This document shows, piece by piece, positions 32,801-62,533 of a stretch of 64,000 nucleotides of DNA. Location: the NCBI GenBank assembly GCA_964291315.2, contig OZ219753.1:2368001-2432000 (forward strand), read 5' to 3'. A program made the translations under genes and the position numbers. The stretch's first letter is position 1; every line of letters begins with the position of its first letter. This DNA is from Candidatus Poribacteria bacterium. Lineage in GTDB: Bacteria > Poribacteria > WGA-4E > WGA-3G. The notes beneath the pieces were generated by a model, which searched no databases, had not been told where the DNA came from, and worked only from the letters and a program-made list of their open reading frames with translations.

Positions 32801-33423
32801 AGAAGTTGAAGGCGAATCTAGCAGCAATGGGGGCTGTGAACCTCAAGGCAATTGAGGCTTACGAAGAACACAAGAAACGCCACGACTTTCTTATTGCACA
32901 ACGTGAGGATGTCCAACAGTCGATTCAAGCCACCTATCAGGCCATTCAGAAAATTAACCAAACCTCAAGAGACGTATTTCTTAAAACATTTGATCAAGTA
33001 CAGGCAAACTTCCAAGAGGTCTTTACCCAACTCTTCGGCGGTGGCGAAACAGAATTGTTACTGACGGATCCATCCAATGTTCTTGATTCAGGTATTGACA
33101 TTATCGCCCGTCCCCCGGGGAAACGTCCACAGAACATCACGCAACTTTCCGGTGGAGAACGATCGCTTGTAGCAATTGGGTTGCTGTTTGCTGTCTTCAA
33201 AATCAAGCCAAGCCCTTTCTGTGTGCTTGACGAAGTGGATGCCGCACTTGATGAAGCGAACGTGCTTCGCTTTGCCAATCTCATCGGAACCTATACCGAG
33301 AATACCCAATTTGTGATTATCACCCATAACCGGCGCACGATGGAGATCGCTGACGTAATGTACGGCGTAACGATGGAGCAGGCCGGCATCTCAAAAATTG
33401 TTTCCGCTAAGTTCGTTGAGTAA
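29830..33423 (+). CDS. smc: Chromosome segregation protein SMC
   Basis: GFKSF, GPNGCGKSN, hinge GRVTFLPL, LSGGE, LDEVDAALD; start reassigned to TTG at 29830 after GGAGG. Confidence 0.96.
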   Translation: MHLNSIKIRGFKSFAEEVELILEPGITAIVGPNGCGKSNVSDAIRWVLGEQSARSLRCASMRDLLFNGGANFVPAQGTEVTLRFSNGSRNLDTSAQTAPAKLAFGSPEIEVSRRLTRDGESRYLINQNLCRLRDITELFMDTGIGVDAYSVMEQSKIDMILNVRPEDRRFLFDEVAGITKYKHRKKTALRKLEQTDQNLVRINDVIQELQRETESLKEQAEQARHYNAQQDQLKRFELELAHREYDKLRTDYLQLQSELDEILNASTDASEQLKAAEERIENATHRQSELDATIRTGQTALREIETKIEQVERQIVLHKERQLNIQQQRQRAIQALEALKAQHTSTLAQQKQRTQEHQKLEASFKIEESRLTARQQLLTQLTERIDVSKKSVRDAQTVLTQTTTELTERERKRLAIEHELTSREGNLNRLKENRETLAAELNTATETHAAVQRAETQLKADLIQFEAERSQVEVELGKNQDALRKIEAEISGLQNTLGRSTSRLRSLQELQAAYEGYYLGVRAIMQAKSHYPAQFRGVCGVVAELLSMDGEYEGAIEVALGSTIQNVVTETAEDAENGIAFLRKHRAGRVTFLPLDILRKRRFNDDVLLKQTGVIGIAQELVNYDRKYEIAVQHLLGNTLVVEDLDAAIALTRRFHPNARLVTLEGELINTSGAITGGQTNQQKSGLLSRARELDDLEDKIGQLTQSNNQKDQKRKAYAATIANLQKTKQTLTTYWQDKRVEKASLTKDMEQANLHVTRLKQQLATVEVENRELKQAVAGSREEQTNLETDIAALTQNVSRSQRWIERMSEQIESEDRKRSEVANACQEMQVFLAGQRQRLEGLASELRTLGETQQRTTKEIAEQQKVIDSDEQTRIDLGEQVAEAQREFLCLEGDRAEAESRVDDLTQERENLLQEITSLQKEMRATRRRFEQQNRARHKLEVTITQLEMRIKSVSTRIHDKYQISIDALPLLTNDQQTIDEIDLLDNIEKLKANLAAMGAVNLKAIEAYEEHKKRHDFLIAQREDVQQSIQATYQAIQKINQTSRDVFLKTFDQVQANFQEVFTQLFGGGETELLLTDPSNVLDSGIDIIARPPGKRPQNITQLSGGERSLVAIGLLFAVFKIKPSPFCVLDEVDAALDEANVLRFANLIGTYTENTQFVIITHNRRTMEIADVMYGVTMEQAGISKIVSAKFVE

Positions 33424-33510
33424 GCATCAAGCACATAGCATCTATATTATCGCTGAATATCAAGTCATAAACACCATCCGACCCGGAAATAGGAGTCTCC
33501 AGCCCGAAAA

Positions 33511-34482
33511 ATGATGAACAAGCTGAATCGGAATCAACTTAGAGTTCTGCCGCTCTCTAAACGCCGACACAAAATGACGGTGGCGGATATCTATGCACTA
33601 GACGCAGAGACCTCACCTTACGATAATCCGCAGCTCTGCATCGTTGCGGATAGAATCGCTAAAGCACATCGCCAACGGAAACAAGTCATTTGGATGATGG
33701 GCGCGCACGTCATGCGTCGCGGCAACTCCCGATACATCATCGACTTAATGGAGCGGGGCGTTCTTACGCATCTCGCTACTAACGGCGCATGTGCTATCCA
33801 CGATTTTGAGCTTGCACATATCGGTGCAACCCTTGAAGATGTAGAGGATTACATCTCGGACGGTAAGTTCGGCAATTGGGAAGAAACAGGACGCTATTTG
33901 AACGAGGCGATTGTCCGAGGCCATCACGATAAAATTGGATTTGGAGAAGCGATCGGCAGGTTCATACAAGAAGCTGAGAAGGGCACCCCTTTCCCGCATC
34001 GCGATGTGAGTATCTTTGCAGCCGCTTACCGCCTCGGCATACCGTTCACTGTCCACAAAGGCATCGGTTTCGACATCATAGACCAACACCCGGCAGCCGA
34101 TTACGCCGCAATGGGATGGACAACAGGTGAGGATTTCCTCCGTTTTGCCCAAAGCGTGTCGCAATTGGAAAACGGGGTTTTTCTCAATTTAGGTTCTGCC
34201 GTAATGGGGCCTGAAGTCTACCTCAAAAGCCTCTCCATGGCCCGAAACATCGCAGCGCAACACGGTGAAGAGATCCGACATTTCACAACCGCAAACTTCG
34301 ATCTCATCGACTTCCCCGATTTCCAAGATGAAGGATCGCCTGCCGAGGCGCACTACTACCATCGCCCAAAAAAAACGATCCTCATCCGCACCGTGAAAGA
34401 CGGCGGGGAAGGTTATCATATCCCCGGCGATTTCTCAGTAACCATCCCGCAGTTATACCATTTGTTGGTAAAATCTCTATAA
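33511..34482 (+). CDS. Conserved protein, deoxyhypusine-synthase-like fold (function unknown)
   Basis: MGAHV, ATNGACAIHDFE and LNLGSAVMGPEVYLK resemble DHS-like NAD-binding proteins. Confidence 0.5.
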   Translation: MMNKLNRNQLRVLPLSKRRHKMTVADIYALDAETSPYDNPQLCIVADRIAKAHRQRKQVIWMMGAHVMRRGNSRYIIDLMERGVLTHLATNGACAIHDFELAHIGATLEDVEDYISDGKFGNWEETGRYLNEAIVRGHHDKIGFGEAIGRFIQEAEKGTPFPHRDVSIFAAAYRLGIPFTVHKGIGFDIIDQHPAADYAAMGWTTGEDFLRFAQSVSQLENGVFLNLGSAVMGPEVYLKSLSMARNIAAQHGEEIRHFTTANFDLIDFPDFQDEGSPAEAHYYHRPKKTILIRTVKDGGEGYHIPGDFSVTIPQLYHLLVKSL

Positions 34483-34599
34483 AGGCCTGTATCACGGCTA
34501 GTATAAAGCATCTAGATGCCGCGTGTCCTAATACGCTGATATAAAAATCTAAGGAGACGATGGTCAAAAGGGAATACCCGATCTTGGGTGAGAAAATAT

Positions 34600-34629
34600 T
34601 TGACATATCTTAACGACTTAAGGTATGAT
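34600..34629 (+). promoter_or_regulatory. sigma70-like promoter with a CTTAA-N4-TTAAG palindrome in the spacer
   Basis: TTGACA-N18-TATGAT; CTTAAcgacTTAAG at 34609-34622. Confidence 0.65.
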
Positions 34630-34708
34630 TAACGCAAAATCTTTTTTCAACTTCACGTTATATTACTTTTACAGAAACCGTTCACCGATAGCATCCGGTA
34701 CATTGCGA

Positions 34709-34840
34709 ATGAAAAGACACGCGAACATCCCATCGATCCAAATAGGTGCTCCTGAAACATCCACTTCCATGTGCCTAAGTGTGCGTAAAGATGAGTCTCT
34801 TTGCGTGCCTATACCAGATTACCCCCCCCGCTTTATGTAA
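34709..34840 (+). CDS. Putative leader peptide (43 aa, MKRHANIP...DYPPRFM) with a C8 tract; extends to 35075 if the tract is C7 or C10
   Basis: ATG at 34709; C8 at 34822-34829; the shifted frame encodes RLTAFAPV (34884-34907), homologous to the leader at 62208-62231. Confidence 0.5.
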   Translation: MKRHANIPSIQIGAPETSTSMCLSVRKDESLCVPIPDYPPRFM

Positions 34841-34900
34841 GTTAAGTTCTTTATACAATCAGGTAGGCTCGGAAACGTTACTCCGGCTTACCGCCTTCGC

Positions 34901-34950
34901 GCCCGTGCCCACTCCGTTTTGGACGGAGCCCCTCAGCACGGGCTTTTTTT
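34901..34950 (+). terminator. Intrinsic terminator/attenuator inside the leader of the DUF1156 gene
   Basis: GCCCGTGC (34901-34908) pairs with GCACGGGC (34936-34943), followed by T7; internal ctccgt/acggag stem. Confidence 0.75.
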
Positions 34951-35049
34951 GTTGCAGTAGCATTTCACTACTGCAGGCTCCCCCGTTACACCCAACGCAG
35001 ACAATCCGTCAATTAAAGGCTGCCACCGCACAATCCATGGCAGGTTCAT

Positions 35050-37839
35050 ATGCCGTACCGCAAAAAACTGATTGAAACGAATATACCGCTCCGAGACATC
35101 AATATGGAGTCAGCGAAAAATACTTCCTCTAGCCCCGGTCATCCGGCAACGTTACATCGCTACTGGGCGCGCCGACCGCTTGCCGCATGCCGCGCCGTTG
35201 TCTTCGCCAGCTTTGTCGACGACCCCGCCGAATGCGAAGACGAGTTCCGAACTGAATACGAACAGAGCGCCGAACGCAACCGGCTCTACGGCATCATAAA
35301 GCGACTTATCGTCTGGCAGAACAGCAACGACGCAAACCTGCTGGCAGAGGCACGCTATGAGATCGCCCTCTCCGTCGCCCGCAATAACGGAGAAGACCTT
35401 GCCGAGTTTCGCGAGCGACACAATGCCGATCCAGACGCTGTTTTGCGGTATCTGCGCGAGCACGCCCCCGCTGTCTACGATCCCTTCTGTGGCGGCGGCT
35501 CGGTTCCGCTCGAGGCACAGCGCTTGGGACTGCGGGCCCGGGGCTCCGACCTGAACCCACTCCCCGTGCTCCTGAACAAGGCGATGATTGAGCTGCCACC
35601 GAAGTTCCACAATCAGCAACCGGTCAACCCGGAGGCGGACCCGATGCACATGTTCACAGACCGTGGCAAAAGCAAGGCTCGCGCGCCTTGGAGAGGCACT
35701 GCGGGCTTAGCAGCGGACATCCGCTACTATGGTGCGTGGATGCGTGAGCAGGCATACAAACGGATTGGGCATCTCTATCCGAAGGCAGAGTTGCCGGACG
35801 GTACTTCAGCCACTGTGGTTGCGTGGCTCTGGGCACGCACGGTGCTGTGTATTAACCCAGCGTGCGGTCTACAGATACCGTTGATAAAGACATTCCAGTT
35901 GTCGAAAAAGAGGGGACATGAGCGCTACATTAAGCCGGTGGTTGACAGAGAGACGAACACCATATCGTGGCAGGTGCAGACCAATCCTGACGGGTTGCCG
36001 GCGCCCACGGTGATGCGAACGGGGGCGTATTGTTGCGGTTGCGGCACCGCTGCGAAGCTGCCTTACGTCCGGGAGCAGGCAAAAACAGGCAGAATGGGAG
36101 AGACGATGACAACGATAGTCGCTGAGGGAGACAGCAAAAAAATATTCTTGGCACCCGCTGAAACACACGTCCAAATTGCCCAGTCTGCTGAGCCCGAACG
36201 AAGACCGCGTCTAGCAATGCCGAATAGCCCGACTTTGGTCAGTGGGCGTGGATACGGCATCACACATTGGCATCAACTTTTCACAAAACGGCAGTTGACT
36301 GCACTCAACACCTTCTCTGACCTATTAGTCGAAGTGCATGCCCGGCTCACTGAGGATGGCGCGCCCCCAGCGTATGCCGATGCTGTTTCCACCTATCTCT
36401 CCCTCGCCATCGGCAGAACTGCGGAGAGTCATTGCAGTTTTGCATGGTGGTACAATGGAGCGGAGCAGATCTCAAAAGTTTTTTCACGGCATGCGATTCC
36501 GATGAATTGGAGCTTTGCTGAAGCCAATCCGTTCTCTACATCAGCACAGAATTGGATAGGGCAAGTAGAGTGGGTTGCAAAGGGAGTAGAAAACCTGCCC
36601 GCATCTGTAAACCTTGGCCAGGCACATCAGGCGAATGTGTGCACCACGCCGCACGCCCAAGATGCACCTGTTATTATCACCGATCCGCCCTACTACGATA
36701 ACATCGACTACGCCACCCTCTCTGATTTCTTTTACGTCTGGCTCAGACCCCTCCTGCGCAACACCTACCCAGATCTGTTCGCTGGCATGACAACACCAAA
36801 GACGGAAGAGATCGTCGCCAGCTCACGATTCGAAGACCCTAAACAGCATTTTGAAGATTTGCTGAGCAAGTCGTTTCGGCAGATGCGCCGCTACTGTTCG
36901 GATAAATACCCAACGTCTATCTTCTATGCCTATAAACAGCAGGAAAAAGGACGGGGCGGGAAAACCTCTACCGGATGGGAGACGATGCTCGAGGCAACTA
37001 TCAACACCGGCTTTCAGATCGTCGCCACCTGGCCACTGCGAACGGAAAAAACCAGCGGTTTTAAGACAGAGATTAACGCCTTGGCATCTTCTATGCTGCT
37101 GGTGTGCAGACCGCGCCCCGAAGACGCACCCCGCAGCGACAGAAACACCTTCATACGCGCACTCGAAAACGAGATGCCCGCTGCTCTCGACCGACTCACC
37201 CGCATCGCAAACATCAGACCCGTCGACCTCGCACAAGCCGCCATCGGCCCAGGCATGGAGATCTATTCCCGCTATCGCAGCGTCACGCGCATCAGCGGCG
37301 AAGTCGTCTCCATACGAGAGGCACTCCAACATATCAACAACGCAATCACCGCTTATCGCGAAAAGATAATCGGGGAACTCGACGCAGAGACGCAGTTCTG
37401 CCTCACTTGGCTGCAGCAACACGGATACCTGCCGGGCAGCTTCGGGGATGCCGATGGACTTTCAAAAGCAAGAGGCGTTTATGTGCCAGCGATGCACGAC
37501 AGACTGCTCATTGTAGACCGTGGCAAAGTCCGTTTATTGAAACCGGAAGAATACGCGGATCGCGAGGAGCATCCAGAGATGTCAGCGTGGGAGGGGTGTC
37601 TGCGGATGATCTGGCATCTCTCGTTCACAGAGTTCAGCGGTGGCATTCAGGGGTGTGCAAGGGTTGCACGCTTGATGCGTGACTATCACAGTGCGAGACG
37701 TTTGGCTCTGGTGTTGTACAGCTACTATGAGGCGCTGGGGCACACGGAGGATGCTGCACGCTATAACTACCTTGTGACACAGTGGACGTATATCTGGCAG
37801 ACGATGGGCTCCGCAGAGCAGATAGAGGCGGACGTTTAA
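35050..37839 (+). CDS. DUF1156 domain adenine-specific DNA methyltransferase (orphan)
   Basis: KKLIE..IPL..GHPATLHRYWARRPLAACRA; motif I DPFCGGGS; motif IV TDPPYYDN; Zn-finger CxxxxC/CxxC. Confidence 0.88.
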   Translation: MPYRKKLIETNIPLRDINMESAKNTSSSPGHPATLHRYWARRPLAACRAVVFASFVDDPAECEDEFRTEYEQSAERNRLYGIIKRLIVWQNSNDANLLAEARYEIALSVARNNGEDLAEFRERHNADPDAVLRYLREHAPAVYDPFCGGGSVPLEAQRLGLRARGSDLNPLPVLLNKAMIELPPKFHNQQPVNPEADPMHMFTDRGKSKARAPWRGTAGLAADIRYYGAWMREQAYKRIGHLYPKAELPDGTSATVVAWLWARTVLCINPACGLQIPLIKTFQLSKKRGHERYIKPVVDRETNTISWQVQTNPDGLPAPTVMRTGAYCCGCGTAAKLPYVREQAKTGRMGETMTTIVAEGDSKKIFLAPAETHVQIAQSAEPERRPRLAMPNSPTLVSGRGYGITHWHQLFTKRQLTALNTFSDLLVEVHARLTEDGAPPAYADAVSTYLSLAIGRTAESHCSFAWWYNGAEQISKVFSRHAIPMNWSFAEANPFSTSAQNWIGQVEWVAKGVENLPASVNLGQAHQANVCTTPHAQDAPVIITDPPYYDNIDYATLSDFFYVWLRPLLRNTYPDLFAGMTTPKTEEIVASSRFEDPKQHFEDLLSKSFRQMRRYCSDKYPTSIFYAYKQQEKGRGGKTSTGWETMLEATINTGFQIVATWPLRTEKTSGFKTEINALASSMLLVCRPRPEDAPRSDRNTFIRALENEMPAALDRLTRIANIRPVDLAQAAIGPGMEIYSRYRSVTRISGEVVSIREALQHINNAITAYREKIIGELDAETQFCLTWLQQHGYLPGSFGDADGLSKARGVYVPAMHDRLLIVDRGKVRLLKPEEYADREEHPEMSAWEGCLRMIWHLSFTEFSGGIQGCARVARLMRDYHSARRLALVLYSYYEALGHTEDAARYNYLVTQWTYIWQTMGSAEQIEADV

Positions 37840-37899
37840 TGCAGGTTCGTAGCATCACCTATTCGGGTGTGCACACACGCCAAGGGGGCTCCATAAGCT

Positions 37900-38154
37900 C
37901 TAGAAACACTGCAGTTCAGTAGACACAGACGTGCCAGAGATAAAAGTGCCTGGAAGTGTGATACTTGTTGTTATAGAAAACGCCGAGGATCGCCAGCACC
38001 GCGATCGGATCTACGGGGCTTTCTCTAACATGTGAGAAAAAAGTCGTCTATTTTGCAGAAGAGTGATACAATACACATGAGAGAATGCCTTCGCGGAAAG
38101 GTATAATAACCTTATTTTTTATACCAAGGTGGCTCTCTTTAGACAAAGGAAACA
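37900..38154 (+). repeat. Dispersed ~255-bp repeat element, copy A (MITE-like or ncRNA; carries TGATACAAT)
   Basis: Aligns along its length with the reverse complement of 40891-41167. Confidence 0.85.
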
Positions 38155-38210
38155 CTTTATTCAACCTTGCGGTAGACAGACTCAAAAACGAAATCACATA
38201 GGAGAAGCTC

Positions 38211-38927
38211 ATGAAACTTGAGAGCATCACACCGAGCACACAGTTTAGTTCCTGCTCTGAATTGAACGACATATTCAGAGCAGCAGGGTATAGACGGTAC
38301 GACCGAACCATAACAGAACTCTACGGGTACACAGAACGCTCAGTAGTTAAAACAGAATATGAGAGTCGTGCATGGAAACAGACAAGAGGAGAAGTACCGT
38401 ACCATCTACTCACACCCAGGTATTGGAAAGTGCAAGAACAGGTTCGCATCATGATAGAAGAATGCTTTGACAGATTCTGCATATTAGAACTAGACGAAGA
38501 ACCATTCGGAGTCGCCTTAAAAGTCGGCGTAAGGAGCAATCCGTTGACAGAAATAGCCCTCTACGAAGAGATCATCCAACTCATAAACCCAATCACCTTA
38601 GACTTCCCTGAAGTAGATACATTAGACTACAATCCACAAACACAGAAATACGAAAGCAGGTTAGAAACGCCCATCCGCTTAAGAGGTCTCCGCTTCATCA
38701 GTCCTGATGAGAGCTTAGAGGCTTTTACAGATGAACCGTGGTATGAAAACGGCGATGGCACACACTGGCAGAACGGGTATGAGATGTTAAACGAAGTTGT
38801 CTATTATGATATCTTTGAAAAATACATCCCAAAGGCATTTTACGACCTCAGATACATCTACGAAGAGGCATCAGAAGAGGTCAAAGAAATCCTATTTAAC
38901 GGCCAAAACATTGAGTGGGAAATATAA
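38211..38927 (+). CDS. Hypothetical protein
   Basis: 238-aa ORF with AGGAG RBS; A-rich, acidic and aromatic; no recognised motif. Confidence 0.65.
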   Translation: MKLESITPSTQFSSCSELNDIFRAAGYRRYDRTITELYGYTERSVVKTEYESRAWKQTRGEVPYHLLTPRYWKVQEQVRIMIEECFDRFCILELDEEPFGVALKVGVRSNPLTEIALYEEIIQLINPITLDFPEVDTLDYNPQTQKYESRLETPIRLRGLRFISPDESLEAFTDEPWYENGDGTHWQNGYEMLNEVVYYDIFEKYIPKAFYDLRYIYEEASEEVKEILFNGQNIEWEI

Positions 38928-38958
38928 TCTAAAGGCGCTAAAGTGTCTACCCGAACAA

Positions 38959-39903
38959 TTAGATCGTCCGCTCAAGTAATGTTACGTCGGGCCCACCGCG
39001 GTAGAGAACAACACTATACTGCAGTTTCAAGATTTCATCGGAAGCAAGACGGAACGGCTCGTAGTAAACAAACGAAGGATGGATCAAGCAGTAGTTCTCG
39101 CGATTACGCACCCACCACGTTGTCGGGTAGCGAGGGTTATCAGGATGGTCAACGATTGCAACACCGTAGGTTTCGTCGTCTCTTGGATGCTGTGAAGTGA
39201 AGCTGCACCAACGACTCCGTTTACCGAAGATATCCATCGGTTCAGTGCGTCCATCGGCATTTAAAAGCTTGCCCGGTGTGATGATATTATCAAATCGGAT
39301 TGCCAATCCGCTGTAGAATCTACCTTCTGCCCCCGGCTCCCCGCGCCGTAAATCTAGGACAACTTCACGTTCATGCGGCTGAAGTGTTAAAGAGACAGCG
39401 ATTTGCATTGCATCATTTGTGGGCGGATGAACAGTTATCTCGCGCTGTTCTGTCAAATGCGTTGTGCCTTGCCAATCTGTCCAAGTGTTTGCTGTCGTTA
39501 AACCGGCACTGTCAGCATCTGCATTTTGCACAACGATCCGCTGATGGACGATCTTGCCGAAACCTGCTGGATCATCCCCGGGGCCCGGTTGTTCCCAGAA
39601 ATTGACCCCGTTAACCTTTTTCCACGCAACCCATAAGCCTTGGTGATGCACATGATCGCCGGGTTCGTTCATTGTGAGCGGTGGTGCACCGGGTAGATTC
39701 AACGGGTGGCAGAACGGACGGTTACCGTTTTCAGGGAAATGGTAACCCAAGACCTGTTGCTTGTTCCAAGCGATGCTTAAACTATTTTGTGTATGTGAAA
39801 GTGAGAACATATTTTTATCCGTAACATTAAGAATGCCACATCTGAATTGCAGCTTTGAGTTTCCAATTATCAGGTGCCCAATTCCGTCGAACATTTTCGG
39901 CAT
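38959..39903 (-). CDS. PmoA-like (DUF6807) putative carbohydrate-active protein; true start may be near 39810
   Basis: RPFCHPL, DHVHHQGLWVAW..VNGVNFWE and DHPDNPRYPTTW motifs. Confidence 0.7.
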   Translation of the reverse strand: MPKMFDGIGHLIIGNSKLQFRCGILNVTDKNMFSLSHTQNSLSIAWNKQQVLGYHFPENGNRPFCHPLNLPGAPPLTMNEPGDHVHHQGLWVAWKKVNGVNFWEQPGPGDDPAGFGKIVHQRIVVQNADADSAGLTTANTWTDWQGTTHLTEQREITVHPPTNDAMQIAVSLTLQPHEREVVLDLRRGEPGAEGRFYSGLAIRFDNIITPGKLLNADGRTEPMDIFGKRSRWCSFTSQHPRDDETYGVAIVDHPDNPRYPTTWWVRNRENYCLIHPSFVYYEPFRLASDEILKLQYSVVLYRGGPDVTLLERTI

Positions 39904-39968
39904 AGCACAACTACCGAGCGGTATCTATAAAATTATAACGCCTGTATGCCCGAGTGCCGAAGCCAGCT

Positions 39969-40793
39969 CTAATTGAGATATCGGTTCACAACCTCGCGTT
40001 CCAATGATAAACCCTCCCACTCGTCATCGCCAGGTCCATCATAGATAAGCGTATGCGGTCCGGCAAAACCCGCTTCTTGGGTGAGCTCAAGACATCGCAC
40101 GTAATCTTCCTTGTCCATTTGGCGCGGTGCTGCGAAATGTGCTTTGGTATGACACGACTCTGCCCATGATGCAATCGCAGCAAGGTCTTCATATTTCGTG
40201 GCACCTCGCCAATTGCCGAAGTCTAGACAGAGTCCTACTTTACCGTCTAATCCAGCTAAAATGGTATTGACATTTTCAGGCGTGGAAAAGATGGAAAACC
40301 AGTTTTCGCTCATCACACGAATACCCGCGGTGTCCGCACGTTCTGTGAATTGGGCGAGAACATCACGACTCTGCGCAAGCGACTCTTCAGACGGTTCAGC
40401 TTTCCCACCGATAACCCGTGCACACCTCGCGCCGAGTTGGCCGGCAATATCAATCCATTTCTCAATCCACGCAATATCGCGTGCCGCCTCAGACGGATGC
40501 GTAATATCGCCATCGTCAATAAGCAGAGAAAAAAGTTCTACCTCTGCGTCCGCAAGCGCTCCGCGGAATTCGCAGAGATAAGACCCCTCAACAGAAGGCA
40601 GATGGAAATGACAAACTTCCAAGGTACGAATGCCGAATTCTGCTACCCGCGCCGGTAATTCCAAAAGTGAGATAGGACCGTTATTGTGGGTTTCGATCGG
40701 AATCTGCATGTCATGCTTGGGACCGGTGAATCCGGGTTTCCCGAGTTGCCGATGCAAACTCCACGTTGAGACTGAGAGACGAGGTGTCGACAT
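39969..40793 (-). CDS. Sugar phosphate isomerase/epimerase (xylose-isomerase-like TIM barrel)
   Basis: SENW, LCLDFGNW and CHTK motifs; GGAGG RBS. Confidence 0.8.
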   Translation of the reverse strand: MSTPRLSVSTWSLHRQLGKPGFTGPKHDMQIPIETHNNGPISLLELPARVAEFGIRTLEVCHFHLPSVEGSYLCEFRGALADAEVELFSLLIDDGDITHPSEAARDIAWIEKWIDIAGQLGARCARVIGGKAEPSEESLAQSRDVLAQFTERADTAGIRVMSENWFSIFSTPENVNTILAGLDGKVGLCLDFGNWRGATKYEDLAAIASWAESCHTKAHFAAPRQMDKEDYVRCLELTQEAGFAGPHTLIYDGPGDDEWEGLSLEREVVNRYLN

Positions 40794-40890
40794 AATCCAA
40801 ATCCTCCAAAATTGCAGATATAAACGTTAAGGGTGCGGATAGATCTCGGAGACTCACGCTATTATAATGTGAGCTTGATAAGTAGCTCCA

Positions 40891-41167
40891 TGTTTTCTTT
40901 ATCTAAAGAGAATCCGTTTGGTATAATAATACTCTTGTACTTTCTGAAAAGGAATTTTCTCATATGTATTGTATCACTTTTCTGCAAAATAGACACCTTT
41001 TTTCTTGCTTATTAGAGAAAGCTCCGCCGGCAGAGCCGCGCGGCCGCGGAGACTACATCCGCGCGAGGGGTTGACGTGCCTTATCGCCTTTCATTACAAC
41101 GGATACTGTACCTTCAAGCCGCTTTGTCTCCGGCACGTCTGTGTCTATTGGACTGCAGCATTTCTAG
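40891..41167 (-). repeat. Dispersed repeat element, copy B (inverted relative to copy A, with an ~20-bp GC-rich insertion)
   Basis: Minus strand reads ctagaaatgctgcagtccaatagacacagacgtgcc...tttctctaa...gtctattttgcagaaaagtgatacaatac...ctctttagataaagaaaaca. Confidence 0.85.
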
Positions 41168-41390
41168 GTTAATATCTACCCGGCGGGCTAGCGTATCAGC
41201 TCTCAGAGCATAAACCCTCGCTGAACGACTTTGAGCTTCAGCAGGGACACGCGGGACCTAGCAGCCTTAAAACCTAGACGTTTTATCAAACGCACGTTAT
41301 TTCAAATTTGATATATTGGCTTGACTGTTCCGCGTTTTTCTGATACACTATCAATCCGTAAATTATCCGTGTGACACAGAAGGAGTGAAT

Positions 41391-42176
41391 ATGGCAACAG
41401 AAAAAATGTTTTCTGCGCAGCAAATCGCAGCACAGCTCTACACAGTTAGAGAATTTACGAAGACCGAGGCTGATATTGCAGAAACGATGAAAAAAGTCCG
41501 ACAACTTGGATATGAAGCGGTGCAATGTTCTGCGCTCGGCCCAATCCCGCCCGCTACATTAAAAAGTATAGTTGATGGCGAAGGCATTCGCATCATCGCC
41601 ACACATACCAACTACGTTCGGATGCGCGACGAGCCGCAATCTGTCATTGATGAACATCAATTGTGGGGATGCAAGCACGCCGCAATCGGCGGAATTCCGG
41701 GGGAATATCGGACAGCTGAAGGATATATCAAATTCGCAAAAGAAGCCTCCGAAGTCGCAGAGCGCCTTGCTGAAGGCGGTCTAACCTTTTCCTATCACAA
41801 CCATAGTTTTGAATTGGAACGTTTTAACGGGCGCACAGGTCTAGAAATTTTGTATGCCGAGAGCGATCCAAACTATTTTAAGAGCGAATTAGACACCTAT
41901 TGGATTCAACACGGCGGCGGCGACCCAGCAGCATGGATTCGAAACCTGAAGGGACGTGCTGACATCATTCATCTGAAAGATATGGCGATGCAAGGTTCCA
42001 CACAACGTTTTGCAGAAGTCGGTGAAGGCAATCTCAACTGGTCCGCTATCTTAAGTGCGTGTAACTATGCAGGCGTTGAATGGTACATCATCGAACAAGA
42101 CACCTGTTATGAACGTGACCCGTTTGAGAGCTTAGGCATCAGTCTGCAAAATCTGCAAGAGATGGGTTTCGCCTAA
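41391..42176 (+). CDS. Sugar phosphate isomerase/epimerase (TIM barrel)
   Basis: QLYTVR, YHNHSFE, ELDTYW, HLKD and IIEQD motifs; promoter TTGACT-N17-TACACT near 41321-41349. Confidence 0.85.
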   Translation: MATEKMFSAQQIAAQLYTVREFTKTEADIAETMKKVRQLGYEAVQCSALGPIPPATLKSIVDGEGIRIIATHTNYVRMRDEPQSVIDEHQLWGCKHAAIGGIPGEYRTAEGYIKFAKEASEVAERLAEGGLTFSYHNHSFELERFNGRTGLEILYAESDPNYFKSELDTYWIQHGGGDPAAWIRNLKGRADIIHLKDMAMQGSTQRFAEVGEGNLNWSAILSACNYAGVEWYIIEQDTCYERDPFESLGISLQNLQEMGFA

Positions 42177-42200
42177 GCGAATCATTTTTCGCCAATGCCG

Positions 42201-42271
42201 CGGACGAGGCTTCTTACATGACACTCACGGGGTGTCCGAAACACGAACGCGAGGTAGGAAGCACTCGTCCG
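42201..42271. other. Structured intergenic element (outer stem with internal hairpin)
   Basis: cggacgaggcttcttac pairs with gtaggaagcactcgtccg; inner gacactc/gggtgtc stem. Confidence 0.45.
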
Positions 42272-42365
42272 ATAACTGAGACAATACACTTCTGATTCAA
42301 GACAGAAAAACAGTTGGATAGTGCTGAATAAGCCGAACATTGCTAAAAACCGGCATATTTTTATT

Positions 42366-42394
42366 TGACATTCCCGGCGAGTTATGATACAATT
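42366..42394 (+). promoter_or_regulatory. sigma70-like promoter of tRNA-Pro/hom
   Basis: TTGACA-N17-TACAAT with a TG extension. Confidence 0.65.
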
Positions 42395-42437
42395 AGAAAT
42401 GAATGGATAAAAAATAAATAGGATCTAATCCAGTTAA

Positions 42438-42511
42438 CGGGGCGTGGCGCAGCCCGGAAGCGCGCTTGAATGGGGTTCAAGAGGTCGCTGGTTCGAATCC
42501 AGTCGCCCCGA
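42438..42511 (+). tRNA. tRNA-Pro (GGG); CCA not encoded
   Basis: Acceptor stem cggggcg/cgccccg; anticodon stem cttga/tcaag with loop atGGGgt; T-loop GTTCGAATC. Confidence 0.95.
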
Positions 42512-42607
42512 TTTTTGATATGTACTCTCGGCTTGCAAATTGTGTGAGTCCCAGGCCCACCTGCCAGCCGAGCAGTGGATGTACAGAGAAAATAGGGAGT
42601 CGTAGCC

Positions 42608-43927
42608 GTGGGTAAGTCTATTAATGTGGGCATTTTAGGGTGGGGGACCGTCGGAACCGGGGTCTCCAAGATTCTGATCAACCAGCATGCCCTTATTGCC
42701 AAAAACAGTGGTACAGAATTACGTCTAAAAAAAATAGTAAAACGAACGCTTCCGGCTACTCGTCAAGGCGTTGAACTTCCGGCCGGTTGTCTGACAGACA
42801 ACCCCTCGGAAGTTGTTGATGATCCAGATATTGACATCGTTGTTGAACTTATCGGTGGTGTTACAGAAGCACATGGCCACATCAAGCGTGCTATTCAAAA
42901 TGGTAAGCATGTTGTTACAGCTAATAAAGCCCTTTTAGCAGAACATGGCGGTGAATTGTTCCAACTTGCCTCGGAACATCAGGTAAGTTTGAATTTTGAA
43001 GCAAGCACAGCGGGCGGGATCCCCATTATTAAAACGTTGCAGGAAAGTTTCGCGGGTAACCAGATCCGATCTCTCTACGGTATTGTAAACGGTACCTGCA
43101 ATTATATTTTAACTGAAATGCACAAACGTGCAGTCGATTTTTCGGACGTGCTTCAAGCAGCTCAAGCCATGGGCTACGCTGAAGCCGATCCGACGCTTGA
43201 TGTTGAAGGCATCGATGCTGCTCAGAAACTCATCCTCCTGATTGCTCTCGCCTATAGAAGTAGTATTTCCCTGTCACAACTCCACGTTGAAGGCATCACA
43301 AACATCACACAGAAAGAGATTCAATATGCTCGTGAATTAGGGTATGTCATCAAACTGCTTGCTATCGTGAAGCTGAGTGATGGAAGCTGTGTGGAGGCGC
43401 GCGTGCATCCCACACTTGTGCCGGAGCGGAGCTTGCTCGCGAACGTCGGCGGTGCATTCAACGCAGTTTGTGTCATAGGGGATGCAGTCGGGCCGACCCT
43501 CTTTTATGGACAAGGCGCCGGCGAAATGCCGACCGCTAGTGCGGTTGTTGCGGACATCATAGACGCTGCGAAATCTATACAACGAGGAATGAGTTCACCG
43601 ATTTCACAAGCATGGCTCGCCGGGGCCCAAGCAGAAGTCGACGTTTGTTCTATTGACGATATAGAGACCCGCTATTATCTCCGCTTCGTTGTTGCTGATC
43701 GTCCCGGTGTTCTCGCGAAAATCGGTACCATTTTGGGAAACTGGCAGATTAGCGTCGCCTCTGTCATCCAGAAGGATCCACACGGCATGGATATAGTTTC
43801 CCTTGTTATGCTAACCCACACAGCGCGGGAAAAAAATATAAGAGCAGCACTTGCACAAATTCATACGCTCGAGAGTGTGAAAGGAGAAACACAACTTATT
43901 AGGATTGAAGAACAAGTTGACTGTTAA
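42608..43927 (+). CDS. hom: Homoserine dehydrogenase with ACT domain
   Basis: GWGTVG, VTANKA, EASTAGGIP, GYAEADP and DRPGVLA motifs. Confidence 0.95.
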   Translation: MGKSINVGILGWGTVGTGVSKILINQHALIAKNSGTELRLKKIVKRTLPATRQGVELPAGCLTDNPSEVVDDPDIDIVVELIGGVTEAHGHIKRAIQNGKHVVTANKALLAEHGGELFQLASEHQVSLNFEASTAGGIPIIKTLQESFAGNQIRSLYGIVNGTCNYILTEMHKRAVDFSDVLQAAQAMGYAEADPTLDVEGIDAAQKLILLIALAYRSSISLSQLHVEGITNITQKEIQYARELGYVIKLLAIVKLSDGSCVEARVHPTLVPERSLLANVGGAFNAVCVIGDAVGPTLFYGQGAGEMPTASAVVADIIDAAKSIQRGMSSPISQAWLAGAQAEVDVCSIDDIETRYYLRFVVADRPGVLAKIGTILGNWQISVASVIQKDPHGMDIVSLVMLTHTAREKNIRAALAQIHTLESVKGETQLIRIEEQVDC

Positions 43928-44153
43928 CAGGGCAAAATTCTATCACAAGATCCATCTGAAAACTCTTATTTATATCTTTATTAAGGTGAACTCGAGGAGA
44001 ACCCCGACAATTTCACGCTATTCTATCTACTTAGAAATGTTATTTGCACAATACCCTCTACTATTAGGTATCGTAATACGCTCTGCTGTTTATTTTGAGC
44101 AGCACCGGGTTCTTTTAATTGCTCGCAACAGATACTTGAGGTGAGAATTAAAT

Positions 44154-44726
44154 ATGAAGGAAGATATGAAAAGTACGTTGGTGTTCGAGGTGAAAGACCT
44201 TCGACATGAGGACTTCAAGAGATATGAGGCGCTTGTGGCCCCCGAGACGCTCGGTCTGATTTATGAGGAGGCAGATTTTGTTAGCCCCCTCTCCTGCACA
44301 GTCCTTTTATGCCGTCAAGGCGACAACAATATTTTCGCGACAGCCGATATCACCTCAACCCTTTCAGTGGAGTGCAGACGTTGTGTTAAAGTTTTCAATA
44401 TTGACGTAGCAACTACCCTTAACTTATTTTTCTCTTTTAGAACCAAGTCTTTGGAATCTGATGAAGCGGATGAACGATATTACGATGGGGAGACCTTAGA
44501 TATTTCAGAGGATGTTCGGCAGGATCTTATTGTTGAAATGCCGATGTGGCCGCTCTGTGCTGACACCTGTGAAGGATTATGTCCAGGGTGCGGGGCAAAC
44601 CTCAATGATGGAATCTGTGCTTGTAATACAGAAAATGAGGAACCAGTGTCAACTTCTAATCCGCTTAGCGCGCAGCTCACGGACCTATTCTCCAAAGCTG
44701 ACCCGCTCAAAGACGCTAGAAAATAG
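44154..44726 (+). CDS. DUF177 (YceD) domain protein
   Basis: CRRC...LCADTCEGLCPGCGANLN..C.C; upstream of rpmF. Confidence 0.88.
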   Translation: MKEDMKSTLVFEVKDLRHEDFKRYEALVAPETLGLIYEEADFVSPLSCTVLLCRQGDNNIFATADITSTLSVECRRCVKVFNIDVATTLNLFFSFRTKSLESDEADERYYDGETLDISEDVRQDLIVEMPMWPLCADTCEGLCPGCGANLNDGICACNTENEEPVSTSNPLSAQLTDLFSKADPLKDARK

Positions 44727-44800
44727 CTGGAACCCTAATAAATTCGGTTTGTGGAAGCGACTTTGAATCACAATTTTTACAACTAAGGAGACAATAATCC

Positions 44801-44986
44801 ATGGCACATCCAAAACGCAGAACGTCAAGATCGAAAAAAAGAATGCGGAGAAGCCATAACGCCCTCTACGATAAAGCAATAAGCGTCTGTTCATACTGTG
44901 GAGAGACTATGATATCCCACCATGTCTGTATGGAATGCGGATACTACAATGGAAGGCCTGTACTCAAATCTGCCGATGAGGCATAG
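44801..44986 (+). CDS. rpmF: 50S ribosomal protein L32
   Basis: MAHPKRRTSRSKKRMRRSH; CxxCG..HHVCxxCGYY. Confidence 0.96.
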   Translation: MAHPKRRTSRSKKRMRRSHNALYDKAISVCSYCGETMISHHVCMECGYYNGRPVLKSADEA

Positions 44987-45086
44987 GCGAATCAAGAGTT
45001 TTTAAAGTTGTCCGCTTAGGAAGTGGTATATTGTTACAGAAACACTTTATTAACTGAAAATGGGCAACTACCAAAAGAGATAAACA

Positions 45087-46082: not shown

Positions 46083-46241
46083 CCGCAGGTCACAAACAGT
46101 CAGCATTAGCAGAGAGACCTTTCTAATTAGCCTCAGTTTCTTATGCGATTTGAAGGTCACAGGTTGTGAGAAAGAAGGCCGGAAAACTATTAATCGAACC
46201 ACTATGGAATCAAATGGTGTGGGATCGAATTTGAGAAGAAA

Positions 46242-47180: not shown

Positions 47181-47185
47181 AAACA

Positions 47186-47962: not shown

Positions 47963-48117
47963 TTCGAGTGCACTTGGGCCTCTCCGAGGGCACTTACAAA
48001 CAAAACGTATAGTGGGCAAAATTCAGAACGCCCACACTCGTATTAATTAATAACATACTTTTAGCCCGAAGACCAATTTTGCGGGCAAACATTTTATAGG
48101 AGATCCGAAAAACACTT

Positions 48118-50251: not shown

Positions 50252-50287
50252 CCTACCGTAAAAGCAACCTTTACAGATTTGAAAAAC

Positions 50288-60964: not shown

Positions 60965-62074
60965 TCATTGATTCTTTTTTATATTGAATGTGTAAGTAAT
61001 AGTAACCCGAGTAGCGATTGGCGTTCCATTCCATATAGCGGGATAGAAAGTGGTTTTCTTCAACGCCTCGGCCGCTGCTGCCTCCAATCCAAATCCGAGG
61101 GTTGTACGTTCTACGATGTCTATCGGGATACCCTCTTCATTGATAGTGGCTTCTAAAACGACCTCACCGGTCTTCTCTGCATTTTTTGCGTCCTCTGGAT
61201 ACACCGGATCAACTTTGAATTTGTACTGGGGCCCAGCAACCTCAATATGGGGATCGTAGTCGATGGCGCTCGCTTCGCCGACATGTTCTCGATCCTCCTG
61301 CACAATCCCGCCAGTTTGCACTTCCGCTTGGACTGCTCCATTACGAGTGGAGGCTTGGTGAAAATTCAATCCGAAGCGATACAGCAATTCCGAGTTCTCG
61401 AACGAGAACTCAATGCTCCCGAGTGCGCTCATCGTGGGTGACAACTCTATTTCTAATCCTGCTTCGCCGGTGAAAAAATTCTGCGCGCTGTTCACATGTA
61501 CTTTCTTGGTCGTAGAGACGTTATTCCACGCCTGTGTATAGAATAGCCCAAAGAACGGTTTGAGGTTCCATTCATAGCCTGTATCAAGCAGGTGTAAGAA
61601 GCCCATACCGCCTCGAAGTGCCATATTTATAGAGTGCAGCGGTAAGTTTCCAGTTCTACCAATGTTTGTGTACTGCGTCCTAAAACCGCCTGAGAGGAAA
61701 AATTTCAGCCCCGTCATATTCATGTCGTTGACGTTTAAGAATCGGAGATCTAGAGAAGGACTGGGTGCTATCTGATAGGGATTTTGGGTGTCGGTCTCAA
61801 AAAAGGAGATACCGGGCAGCAGCGACATCTTCAAGTCAGGACTGAAGGTATAATCGAGACTACCTAAAATTGTTTGCGCACTAAAACGAAACGGGGCTTC
61901 GGTGCGTTCCGGAGGCCTATAACGTTGGTATCCCATACCGACCGCCGTTTTCCCAGCTGGCGATCTATAAAAGCCTGTTTGTGCAGATGTGGGTACAGAA
62001 AACACTGCCAGCACGAAAAACATTGCAAACCCCAAAATTCGATGATTGAATCGCATAGAAAATTCTCTTTCCAT
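60965..62074 (-). CDS. Predicted outer-membrane beta-barrel fused to a TonB C-terminal domain
   Basis: Signal peptide; alternating aromatic beta-strands ending YRFGLNF; C-terminal PVYPEDAK..GEVVLEATI..FYPA..NG.P. Confidence 0.65.
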   Translation of the reverse strand: MEREFSMRFNHRILGFAMFFVLAVFSVPTSAQTGFYRSPAGKTAVGMGYQRYRPPERTEAPFRFSAQTILGSLDYTFSPDLKMSLLPGISFFETDTQNPYQIAPSPSLDLRFLNVNDMNMTGLKFFLSGGFRTQYTNIGRTGNLPLHSINMALRGGMGFLHLLDTGYEWNLKPFFGLFYTQAWNNVSTTKKVHVNSAQNFFTGEAGLEIELSPTMSALGSIEFSFENSELLYRFGLNFHQASTRNGAVQAEVQTGGIVQEDREHVGEASAIDYDPHIEVAGPQYKFKVDPVYPEDAKNAEKTGEVVLEATINEEGIPIDIVERTTLGFGLEAAAAEALKKTTFYPAIWNGTPIATRVTITYTFNIKKNQ

Positions 62075-62272
62075 TTGTTATTGATAAGTTAAACATAGAG
62101 AAAATAAAAATGAAATTAGAGATGACACATCTGTCTTCTCTTATTAAAACCAACTTTATGCTGAGAAACCTCAGCAACGGCGCAATTTGCTGCTGGGGAA
62201 GCAGGCAAACAGGCGCAAAGTGGGTAACTCGGTGGATCGTGGACGTGTTTTCGGATAAACGGAATGAATTAC

Positions 62273-62419
62273 TTATTGTATGTGATGTAGGGGGGGGGGT
62301 GAATCGCTAAAAAGTAGGGTAGCAGCAGAACCTACGGAAGACAGAGACCGCTGCGCAGGATTAGTGTGACTAAATACCGCCGCCGTTTCGGATATGATGT
62401 TGATGGACAAATCTTTCAT
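62273..62419 (-). CDS. Putative leader peptide (48 aa, MKDLSINI...DSPPPLHHIQ) with a C10 tract; extends to 61965 if the tract is C8 or C11
   Basis: ATG at 62419 after GAGG; G10 at 62290-62299 on the plus strand; the shifted frame encodes RVTHFAPV and RFLSIK. Confidence 0.5.
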   Translation of the reverse strand: MKDLSINIISETAAVFSHTNPAQRSLSSVGSAATLLFSDSPPPLHHIQ

Positions 62420-62504
62420 GCGCCTCACTGATTAACACTGATAGGATTAACGGAGCCTATCAATGTTACCTTCGGATTCTCTTTTTTCACAATTTTCATT
62501 TTCA

Positions 62505-62533
62505 ATTATACCTTAAACTGTTAAGTATGTCAA
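62505..62533 (-). promoter_or_regulatory. Consensus sigma70 promoter with a CTTAA-N4-TTAAG palindrome
   Basis: TTGACA-N17-TATAAT; palindrome at 62512-62525. Confidence 0.75.

Follow-up and report, generated by a model that had tools for sequence, protein, structure and literature searches.

In trp/his-type and pyrBI-type attenuation, the position of the ribosome on a leader peptide decides whether a terminator forms, and in pyrBI the ribosome itself blocks the terminator. Phasevarions involve phase-variable mod and Type IIG methyltransferase genes, as in Haemophilus, Neisseria and Helicobacter, with the repeats inside the open reading frame (ORF). The closest architecture described is that of pil1 (the Pil1 pilus) in Streptococcus gallolyticus, where a simple repeat, GCAGA in ~22 copies, lies in a promoter-proximal leader ORF (Danne et al. 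2014, PMC3894217). There, the peptide of the short phases stops 39 bp ahead of a stem-loop terminator and expression is low; in the long phases the ORF extends into the terminator or beyond it, and expression is high because the translating ribosome does not let the stem-loop fold; the majority of the population is OFF. Two further systems are described in PMC12721329: the Helicobacter pylori sRNA RepG pairs with the G-repeat of tlpB, the length of which in the 5′ UTR tunes expression, and a hairpin in the heptamer repeat of Haemophilus influenzae hmw1A is cut by RNase III.

We analysed a 64,000-nt stretch of a Candidatus Poribacteria genome (the window), in which a leader carrying a run of eight cytosines, leader A, precedes a DNA methyltransferase gene. 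The features of this locus are, in window coordinates:

34600..34629, + strand: sigma-70-type promoter (TTGACA, 18 nt, TATGAT; 11/12 consensus positions)
Within the spacer of this promoter, + strand: inverted repeat CTTAA-CGAC-TTAAG
~34636-34638, + strand: predicted transcription start
34709..34840, + strand: upstream ORF (uORF), ATG 34709 to TAA 34838-34840, 43 aa with C8 (MKRHANIPSIQIGAPETSTSMCLSVRKDESLCVPIPDYPPRFM)
34781..34809, + strand: hairpin within the uORF, directly upstream of the tract (GCGTAAAGA...TCTTTGCGT; minimum-free-energy fold)
34822..34829, + strand: C8 homopolymer, candidate slipped-strand switch setting the uORF frame
34838..34845, + strand: two staggered TAA codons, 34838-34840 for C8 and 34843-34845 for C9, inside a conserved TAAGTTAAGT block
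34830..35075, + strand: long post-tract frame, stop TGA 35073-35075, 26 nt into the DUF1156 ORF
34862..34892, + strand: hairpin P2, between tract and terminator (GGTAGGC...GCTTACC; fold)
34901..34950, + strand: intrinsic terminator, stem GCCCGTGC 34901-34908 / GCACGGGC 34936-34943, then T7 34944-34950
34954..34974, + strand: post-terminator hairpin (GCAGTAG...CTACTGC; fold)
35050..37839, + strand: stand-alone DUF1156/HmaB-type DNA adenine methyltransferase gene (929 aa; Pfam DUF1156)

Every item that the original prediction had listed for leader A was found where it had been placed, namely the promoter, the uORF, the C8 tract, the long frame opened as far as 35075 by C7 or C10, and the terminator. 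The tract begins 193 nt downstream of the -10 box and is not a promoter-spacer repeat, and the promoter scan returned no further promoter-like site on the + strand between 34630 and 35200. No clear Shine-Dalgarno sequence was found upstream of the uORF. The staggered TAA pair shuts two of the three frames immediately after the C8 tract, so that C8 or C9 leads to a stop 55–60 nt upstream of the terminator stem. The long frame (34779..35075 in the ORF listing) requires C7 or C10 to be entered from ATG 34709, and crosses the hairpins and the terminator. The latter scored -23.7 kcal/mol in the terminator scan and holds a nested hairpin, CTCCGT...ACGGAG, within its outer stem; P2 and the terminator lie side by side in both the minimum-free-energy and the centroid fold. 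Taken alone, the long frame of leader A is unremarkable against chance, as 45% of dinucleotide shuffles leave a frame open across the terminator (P = 0.45) and 31.5% leave one open as far as the gene start (P = 0.315). Significance arises only across the leader family described below.

The methylase behind the leader is covered over its full length by the PADLOC HmaB profile (E = 4e-266) and has six paralogs, with ~82–88% nucleotide identity restricted to the ORF. Its neighbours encode an SMC protein, a 323-aa protein and a 238-aa protein without a match to any defence profile. No DUF499 partner was found near the gene, the closest match on the contig being >800 kb away, and the methylase, predicted to be an 'orphan', does stand alone. 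An Hma (helicase-methylase-ATPase) defence system, which requires adjacent HmaA and HmaC/DUF499, was therefore rejected in favour of a stand-alone paralog.

Leader A shares with pil1 (PMC3894217) a promoter and a co-oriented leader ORF upstream of the gene, a repeat within that ORF, and a terminator between leader stop and gene; reading from sequence alone, the phase of the repeat likewise decides whether the leader ORF stops short of the terminator or past it. The likeness is one of architecture, and sequence homology is not expected. The original prediction knew of no described family with such an architecture. As the pil1 logic has been shown experimentally, the mechanism is not unprecedented. 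The pil1 repeat is a pentanucleotide and the Poribacteria repeat a C homopolymer; pil1 is described at the pilus loci of one Gram-positive species, whereas there are ~30 leaders per genome here and hundreds across the family; and pil1 serves pilus genes, whereas the Poribacteria leaders precede methylase and surface-protein genes. Unlike in pil1, moreover, a conserved stop block closes two of the three phases, and the stop of the long frame often coincides with the main start (ATGA), which would add translational coupling. The homopolymer, the frequent coupling to the main gene start and the genome-wide use before methylase and surface-protein genes would set the Poribacteria leaders apart.

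Like the trp, his and pyrBI leaders, leader A places a leader peptide upstream of an intrinsic terminator, with ribosome position as the decisive variable; the input would be a heritable frame change and not charged tRNA or nucleotide supply. As to the trp/his features, the one fold examined shows no antiterminator hairpin, the 5′ arm of the terminator having no alternative partner there, and no run of candidate regulatory codons is present besides the prolines of the tract. As in phasevarions, the on/off state of a DNA methyltransferase would depend on a hypermutable repeat. The intact 929-aa ORF, however, begins at ATG 35050, 221 nt downstream of the tract, so that a classical intragenic-repeat phasevarion was rejected for this gene, and the repeat would act through the uORF and the terminator. 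With RepG–tlpB and hmw1A (PMC12721329), leader A would have in common a variable repeat in a long 5′ leader that leaves ORF and promoter untouched; those systems act by RNA pairing or processing, whereas the proposal here uses the reading frame of a leader peptide.

We propose that leader A is a cis-acting, three-state, phase-variable leader-peptide attenuator, and put the probability of this reading at roughly 55%. The strong promoter at 34600–34629 would launch the transcript, and ribosomes would initiate at ATG 34709 and translate into the C run. A C8 or C9 tract would bring them to a stop at the staggered TAAs, the terminator at 34901–34950 would fold, and most transcripts would end ahead of the methylase (OFF). 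Slipped-strand gain or loss of C within a population would produce tracts of 3n+1 (C7, C10), on which ribosomes would traverse P2 and the terminator; their passage would block terminator folding, giving the presumed ON state. Ribosomes in the long frame would finish at or just inside the methylase start and so aid its weak ribosome site. The DUF1156 methylase would then be the gene under the control of leader A.

By sequence comparison, leader A is a member of a conserved leader family with ~30 loci in this 4.4-Mb genome. The genome contains 65 C or G runs of at least 8, of which ~30 sit in co-oriented 5′ leaders; the genes behind them encode methylases and LTD-domain, FGE-sulfatase and TonB_C proteins. 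An ATG uORF of ~40 codons enters the tract in 28 of the 30 leaders, and in 20 of 22 representative leaders against 2.7 expected from dinucleotide shuffles. Of 34 tract loci examined in this genome, 21 have the motif TTGAC-N18-20-TAnnnT at a distance of 188–286 nt ahead of the tract. Within the A family, the tracts are C8 in leader A, C9 in paralog L002, C8 in L003 and CAT-C6 in L004, and the uORF is intact in all three paralogs; that of L003 carries a 3-nt indel, which keeps the frame. Upstream of the tract, conservation among these four is highest in the hairpin at 34781..34809, whose sole change falls in the loop. In alignments read by eye, P2 pairing survives the changes in L002 through G-U pairs, and the post-terminator hairpin is present in L032 with other stem letters (GCAGTGAGG...CCTCACTGC); P2 covariation was not countable family-wide, the alignment being out of register there. 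In L002, the stop of the long frame and the start codon of the methylase overlap as ATGA. All three A-type leaders of this genome are in predicted OFF phases. Among the contigs listed for the four sequencing runs that contain the region, none spanned the tract and no length variant appeared.

A search across Poribacteria found the leader family in most congeners. The pattern TTCGCGCCCG-N30-36-CGGGCTWTTTT matched 33 loci in 185,579 species genomes. All 14 loci in records titled Ca. Poribacteria had a C6–C12 run 61–84 nt upstream together with a uORF and a frame open across the terminator; in other named taxa 0/18 had at least five Cs at that place, and one 'uncultured bacterium' record had C5. 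A covariance model of the tract-to-terminator part of the leader (R1) matched 55 of the 60 congeners and, within the family, 81 of 92 genomes, compared with 4/24 and 0/24 genomes in other families of the phylum.

We compared 130 distinct leaders, the homologous leaders coming from ~49 genomes. The C run is 3–30 long at the homologous position. An ATG uORF enters the tract in 117 leaders, at least one frame runs through the terminator in 127, and exactly one long and two short frames are present in 89, with the short-frame stops 30–72 nt (median 53) upstream of the stem. Among the first 29 leaders, 21 had the one-long/two-short layout and 26 the uORF, against 6.9 and 6.3 expected from shuffles; the two short frames depend on a single TAAGT block, conserved across the family. 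In the 82 leaders of clean layout, the uORF is in frame with the long frame in 14, needs one more C in 30 and one fewer in 38. In-frame phases thus fall below one third (P = 0.0014, a value that, like the other family statistics, overstates independence because the sequences are homologous), and both OFF phases are used, which suits an ordinary gene as little as it does a recoding site of fixed direction. The stem of the terminator covaries: in 30 leaders, 94.5% of cells were paired, against 40–50% in slid controls, and 6 of 14 pairs had changed on both sides. Near-identical paralogs of a single genome are distinguished by tract length alone (L316 C9, L317 C11 and L320 C8; L244 C12 and L249 C11), so that their predicted switch state differs. 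We predicted decayed tracts to be locked ON; this held in the first 29 leaders (5/7 vs 2/19) and failed in 100 more (4/18 vs 16/73).

A second leader in the window, leader B, had been predicted to parallel leader A. Its features are:

62502..62533, - strand: promoter (TTGACA 62533-62528, 17 nt, TATAAT 62510-62505)
62576-62548, - strand: second similar promoter, ~43 nt upstream of the first
62273..62419, - strand: uORF, ATG 62419, 48 aa with C10
62299-62290, - strand: C10 tract, entered by the uORF; two frames stop 17–21 nt past the tract
61965..62289, - strand: long frame, accessible with C11 or C8
62227-62204, - strand: TTTGCGCC block in the long frame
62176-62159, - strand: hairpin, plus TAAAGTTGGTTTT, within the long frame
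62074-60965, - strand: TonB_C-domain gene (Pfam TonB_C), its start overlapped by the long frame

The order of the parts is the same as in leader A, with promoter motifs at -234 and -277 relative to the tract. The parallel does not extend to the terminator, as the terminator scan found in leader B a weak compound hairpin followed by TTTT and not a canonical terminator. Leaders of the B and LTD types were without a canonical terminator in that scan, and terminator melting is therefore not the whole story for them. BLAST did not pair the A and B leaders, and the single Rfam match for leader B, on the opposite strand, was sub-threshold, scoring 17.5 bits where the gathering score is 37.8.

The peptides RLTAFAPV of leader A and RVTHFAPV of leader B had been taken as a sign of coding selection in the shifted frame. 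The four third-position differences between them are real. Long frames of congeners, however, read this block in another frame (SSRPRP and SSRAFF; L033 and L036), and of the 21 A-family substitutions in the FAPV frame 7 are synonymous, near the neutral expectation (alignment read by eye). The codons GCG-CCC-GTG at 34899–34907 overlap the 5′ arm of the terminator, and as the FAPV block is this conserved arm, its conservation is one of nucleotides and not of coding. Substitutions in the A-family uORF were likewise not enriched at third positions (read by eye), and by our own count amino-acid-level conservation is absent from both uORF and long frame in the A-family alignment, as expected for a regulatory ORF and equally for an untranslated one. 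The interpretation as a switch therefore loses its coding argument, along with the claim to lack a precedent, and retains the arrangement of uORF, tract and terminator, which recurs beyond shuffles.

Such nucleotide-level conservation, in blocks and hairpins, would also suit an RNA element in which the ORFs are incidental, either a structured 5′ leader or a ~310-nt small RNA with its own promoter and terminator. The C run could then be, for instance, a Rho loading site, a protein-binding site or the pairing partner of a G-rich sequence, its length tuning the interaction. A strong promoter and a strong terminator would give an abundant short RNA, the leader A fold is more stable than those of shuffles (z = -2.7), and 5′ UTR homopolymers that act via RNA have precedents, cited in PMC12721329. 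We nevertheless consider this reading unlikely. The uORF has stayed open in most leaders despite diverging sequence, the one-long/two-short layout is enriched and in-frame states are depleted. Moreover, the stops of the long frame cluster at the main start codon, lying within 20 nt of it in 34 of 111 leaders with eight exact ATGA-type overlaps, and the downstream gene was co-oriented in all seven tract-leader groups examined in this genome. Rfam 15 returned only a tRNA for the whole window at the gathering score, and no family for leader A at E ≤ 1.

Non-genetic recoding was also considered. C runs are shift-prone for tRNA-Pro, and polyproline requires EF-P. The run could be slippery for ribosomes (tRNA-Pro on CCC-C) or for RNA polymerase and give every cell a constant low level of long-frame translation and of read-through, on which proline-tRNA, EF-P or the modification of tRNA might have an influence; tract length would then set a rate and not a heritable switch. 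The tract always encodes Pro-Pro(-Pro) in the leaders examined, and several multi-copy families in this genome show no variation in length, with C8 in 8/8, 6/6 and 3/3 copies. The shift needed, however, has no fixed direction among the 82 leaders, differs even between the close paralogs A and L002, and would have to be served by tracts of 3–30 at one position, which together make recoding quite improbable. That uORF and long frame are an ordinary ~122-aa gene with a miscalled homopolymer and no switch is very improbable: many genomes of the genus are single-contig, probably long-read assemblies in which homopolymer lengths can be wrong, and one leader has an implausible C30, but just 14 of the 82 leaders have the uORF in frame, and the required errors go both ways; the spread is equal in fragmented assemblies (e.g. 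G013, G072 and G049); 33 of 47 C7/G7 runs in this genome are flanked on either side by at least 60 codons of open frame, and the same holds for several C8 runs in ordinary genes outside repeat families; and the putative gene holds a covarying intrinsic terminator and has no Pfam family (neither uORF nor long frame matched), no homolog of near length (53–172 aa) for the long frame in a collection of 5.8 billion proteins, and no amino-acid conservation.

Under the attenuator reading, whether the gene behind a leader is on in a given cell would probably be decided by the length of its C run, across hundreds of leaders. More tentatively, these may constitute a lineage-wide, hitherto undescribed cis-regulatory family of poly-C 'frame-switch' leaders that combine slippage, ribosome-dependent antitermination and translational coupling, and that would generate random per-cell combinations of surface proteins and methyltransferases with phasevarion-like resetting of the methylome. 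If so, a mechanism shown so far, in the literature searched, only at the pilus loci of one streptococcal species would be the main contingency-gene strategy of a symbiont lineage, resting on a single reusable leader module. Each cell of the sponge symbiont would draw a random set of LTD, FGE-sulfatase and TonB-like proteins and methyltransferases. The ON/OFF state of dozens of surface and methylase genes per genome would become readable from sequence, and phase variation of an uncultivated symbiont testable from reads and long-read cDNA. RNA catalogues would gain a well-populated, covarying leader family, and annotators would be cautioned that a small ORF or a 'frameshifted' methylase gene in such a genome is probably a switch and not an error.

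The classical form of phase variation is also present in this genome, where multi-copy methylase genes of Type IIG and Type III are split by G8–G9 runs. A 27-nt flank is common to the tracts and occurs, in either orientation, within unrelated methylase genes; it could be the mark of dedicated machinery or of a mobile 'switch cassette'.

Leader A, the poly-C leader in front of a DUF1156 methylase ORF, was confirmed as originally described, and all of its predicted coordinates were correct. Its elements are listed below.

Features of leader A (window coordinates)
34600-34629: promoter TTGACA-18-TATGAT, near-consensus, 11/12 matches
34709 (ATG) to 34838-34840 (TAA): upstream ORF (uORF) of 43 codons, running into C8
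Immediately 5′ of the tract: predicted hairpin
34822-34829: C8 tract, inside the uORF
34843-34845: second TAA, which would close the frame at C9
Open to 35075: third frame, entered with C7 or C10
34862-34892: predicted hairpin 3′ of the tract
34901-34943, with T7 at 34944-34950: strong, two-level intrinsic terminator, -23.7 kcal/mol

The leader occupies 420 nt before the methylase ORF (35050-37839), whose 929-aa product carries the Pfam domain DUF1156 and is a full-length PADLOC match to the DNA-adenine methylase HmaB (E=4e-266). The genome has six HmaB paralogs that stand alone, this one included; elsewhere on the contig, three further DUF1156 genes adjoin DUF499 genes. Among the Logan contigs listed for four runs of one study over positions 33001-53000, there is a gap from 34547 to 34917 that takes in the tract; no indel is listed at the tract, which carries no weight either way on length heterogeneity. 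Directly 3′ of the methylase gene lies a repeat of ~140 nt (38014-38154), present in ~20 copies genome-wide at 70-90% identity, that looks like a MITE or REP element. The promoter of leader A has an inverted repeat, CTTAA-N4-TTAAG, between its -35 and -10 elements (34606-34623). It has this repeat (62527-62511 in B) and a conserved TTTAAGGTATAAT in common with the promoter of leader B, the minus-strand leader of a TonB_C gene, and the two elements are possibly an operator for a common regulator.

The genome contains 112 C/G runs of at least 7 (47 of length 7, 45 of 8, 18 of 9 and 2 of 10). Of the runs of length 7, 33/47 are flanked within an open frame by 60 or more codons on either side, and repeat families take in most runs of at least 8. 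Within the window, G7 at 51287 and C7 at 60316 fall in ordinary genes, and intact ORFs with an internal C8 run also occur. Two classes of tracts can be told apart: one disrupts Type IIG and Type III methylase genes present in several copies, the other (~30 loci) is organised like leader A. The closest copies, L002 (C9) and L003 (C8), precede paralogous methylase genes and are 91-95% identical to leader A, and the coding sequences that follow are less well conserved (83-88%); L004 is a partial copy with an interrupted tract. An ATG-initiated uORF is present in 28 of 30 leader-type loci, mostly starting 113-143 nt 5′ of the tract, and a TTGAC-N18-20-TAnnnT motif occurs 188-286 nt 5′ of the tract in 21 of the 34 loci examined. 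A conserved TAAGT block closes two frames within a few codons after the tract, leaving a single long one. Downstream of these leaders are genes for methylases (DUF1156 and N6_N4), for LTD-domain proteins of ~950 aa, for an FGE-sulfatase protein of 1177 aa and for a TonB_C protein. The last of these follows leader B (62533-61965, minus strand), a member of the LTD-type subgroup; a basic scan for terminators detected none of canonical form in LTD-type (c0) leaders. Tract length does not vary in some families of this genome, every copy having C8.

To follow the leaders beyond this genome, the terminator block was used as a search pattern, which gave 33 loci in 185,579 species genomes. All 14 loci from Candidatus Poribacteria records had a C6-C12 run 61-84 nt upstream, as well as a uORF and a frame that crosses the terminator. 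No run of at least 5 C was found at that position in the 18 loci from other named taxa, and one 'uncultured bacterium' record had C5. The contrast also supports the assignment of the window to Poribacteria. A covariance model built from 21 tract-to-terminator sequences had matches in 55 of the 60 other genomes in the genus, at 1-22 per matching genome. In a phylum sample of 140 genomes it matched 81/92 of the same family, 4/24 of one other family and 0/24 of the remaining seven families. BLAST with leader A DNA in 40 relatives returned only six short matches, in the terminator region, and no orthologous A locus was found. A looser pattern, ATTAC8-N8-22-TAAGT, was rejected as a family marker because it was too unspecific, with many phyla among the matches listed from all species genomes. 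We regard it as nearly certain that these sequences form a genuine, conserved and previously uncatalogued leader family. Leader A had no match to an Rfam model; a 'Poribacteria-1' RNA motif has reportedly been named in the literature.

Across 30 leaders, both terminator stems covaried: 94.5% of cells were paired, versus 40-50% with the partner slid, and 6/14 pairs had changed on both sides. The score was reached by none of 500 shuffles, though it is somewhat favoured by the alignment having been fitted to the outer stem of the model. The original prediction had read the likeness of RLTAFAPV and RVTHFAPV in leaders A and B as coding selection on a peptide. The likeness is real in letters, yet there is no coding signature, and the TTCGCGCCCG block is the 5′ arm of the terminator. 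As counted by eye from the alignment, synonymous changes made up 7/21 substitutions in the long frame of the A family, which is no synonymous excess, and changes in the uORF fell 8, 6 and 5 times at codon positions 1, 2 and 3. FAPV was also rejected as a conserved peptide by two further leaders, L033 and L036, in which the only long frame reads the block as SSRPRP and SSRAFF. Neither the uORF nor the long frame matched a Pfam family, and the 98-aa long frame had no homolog among proteins of 53-172 aa.

Whether the reading frames matter was assessed in a set of 130 leaders, all distinct and drawn from about 49 genomes. Tract lengths ranged from 3 to 30, with modes at 9 and 11; the run of 30 C (L327, G096:C1:132867-134021) may be real, as an extreme expansion, or an error of assembly. 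A uORF of 25-75 codons entered the tract in 117 leaders, and in 127 one or more frames continued without a stop from the tract to beyond the T run. The layout of precisely one long and two short frames was seen in 89/130, the two early stops resting on a single conserved block. Short frames ended 30-72 nt (median 53) 5′ of the stem. Compared with dinucleotide shuffles, the uORF was found in 20/22 representatives (expected 2.7) and 26/29 leaders (expected 6.3), and the arrangement of one long and two short frames in 9/11 (expected 2.45) and 21/29 (expected 6.9). For leader A by itself, the long frame is no more than chance would give (P=0.45 and P=0.315).

The phase of the uORF bears on what the frames do. 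In 82 leaders with a uORF and a clean layout, the uORF was in phase with the long frame in 14, needed one additional C in 30 and one fewer in 38. If the frames had no consequence, one third would be expected in phase; the observed 17% departs from this (P=0.0014), although P values here overstate independence because the leaders are homologs. A programmed frameshift site predicts one fixed direction, whereas both directions occurred (30 and 38). Ordinary genes would nearly all be in frame, and not 14 of 82. A promoter-spacer switch was rejected for leader A, as the tract does not fit the -35/-10 spacing. Among 111 leaders, the long frame ended within 20 nt of the likely main start in 34, with a spike of eight exact ATGA-type overlaps; cases in the genome under study include L002, both leaders of tract group c8 and C4:939127. 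The idea that decayed tracts are locked ON arose from the first 29 leaders (5/7 for runs of at most 7, versus 2/19 for runs of at least 8) and was rejected on 100 further leaders (4/18 versus 16/73, P=1).

The anatomy of leader A matches the model of Danne et al. (PMC3894217) for Streptococcus gallolyticus pil1. There, it was proved genetically that the repeat number in a leader peptide sets where the ribosome stops. Low expression follows from a stop 39 bp before the terminator, and high expression from a ribosome that enters the terminator and prevents its folding. Given this match, leader A is read as a three-state switch, in which C8 and C9 would be OFF and C7 and C10 would be ON. In the ON state, coupling of translation to the methylase ORF, which is weakly initiated, would add a second layer. 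We estimate the probability that leader A acts as a phase-variable leader-peptide attenuator at roughly 0.55, as judged from sequence. The core of the original prediction is plausible and backed by the family-wide comparison, while its claims of peptide selection and of no described family with this architecture were wrong, pil1 being a precedent. The poly-C leaders differ from pil1 in repeat type, in their conserved stop block, in the coupling to the main gene and in scale, one module being reused ahead of dozens of genes per genome throughout a bacterial family. Leader A is also not a classical phasevarion, because the repeat lies outside the ORF. In the literature searched, repeat, leader peptide and terminator were combined only in the studies of S. 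gallolyticus and in papers that cite them, and no paper linked Poribacteria to phase variation.

Several other arrangements were observed. Upstream of leader B is an N6_N4 methylase gene (62669-64000, minus strand) that extends beyond the edge of the window. The C8 leader of this gene lies just past the window end (about 64114 and 64405-64412), so two switch leaders would stand in tandem on the minus strand; the long frame of this leader has an ATGA overlap with the methylase start. In the three FGE-sulfatase leaders (C4:330232, C4:775135 and C4:2769968, L027), C9 would fuse the uORF in frame with the main ORF, 5′ of its signal peptide (MKRT...) and with no intervening terminator, which makes them, by their sequence, a variant with a putative translational switch. 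In front of two further stand-alone HmaB paralogs (C4:1804180-1804700 and C1:104110-104630) is a leader of another kind, ~330 nt long, which lacks a C run, carries a TTGACA promoter of its own and ends in ATAAAGTTG immediately 5′ of the ATG. Its ATAAAGTT motif is also found after a hairpin in leader B (62158-62150) and in LTD-type leaders.

Tracts within methylase genes were represented by L021 (C4:1054000-1060000), L022 (C1:429500-435500), L023 (C4:3028500-3034500) and L024 (C4:1872000-1878000). Here, multi-copy methyltransferase genes, Type IIG (Eco57I/MmeI-like) or Type III-like, are each broken by a G8-G9/C8 run into a pair of ORFs. The families have 6-8 near-identical copies, with C8 in every copy for two of them, and look like classical phase-variable restriction-modification genes held OFF. 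C7 runs at C4:517291-517297 and C4:1515222-1515228 lie at the 5′ end of DUF1156 genes paired with DUF499 (canonical Hma-like loci), and one such frame is open for only 131 aa. An intragenic switch may therefore act there too, and complete Hma-like systems may also be under classical control of this kind. Genome-wide, unrelated tract families have a common flank, CTTATCA-S-AGATTA-Cn-GCT(T/C), whose orientation differs between families: it follows the coding strand in the methylase family c4 but not in c1 and c2, where it lies on the other strand; in leader A it reads CCAGATTA-C8-GCTT (34811-34834). A motif shared in this way at the DNA level suggests a recombination site, a mobile 'switch cassette' or machinery common to these tracts. 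At 11461-11469, just beyond the 3′ end of the minus-strand ORF 11491-12387, is a C9 run that belongs to none of the repeat families.
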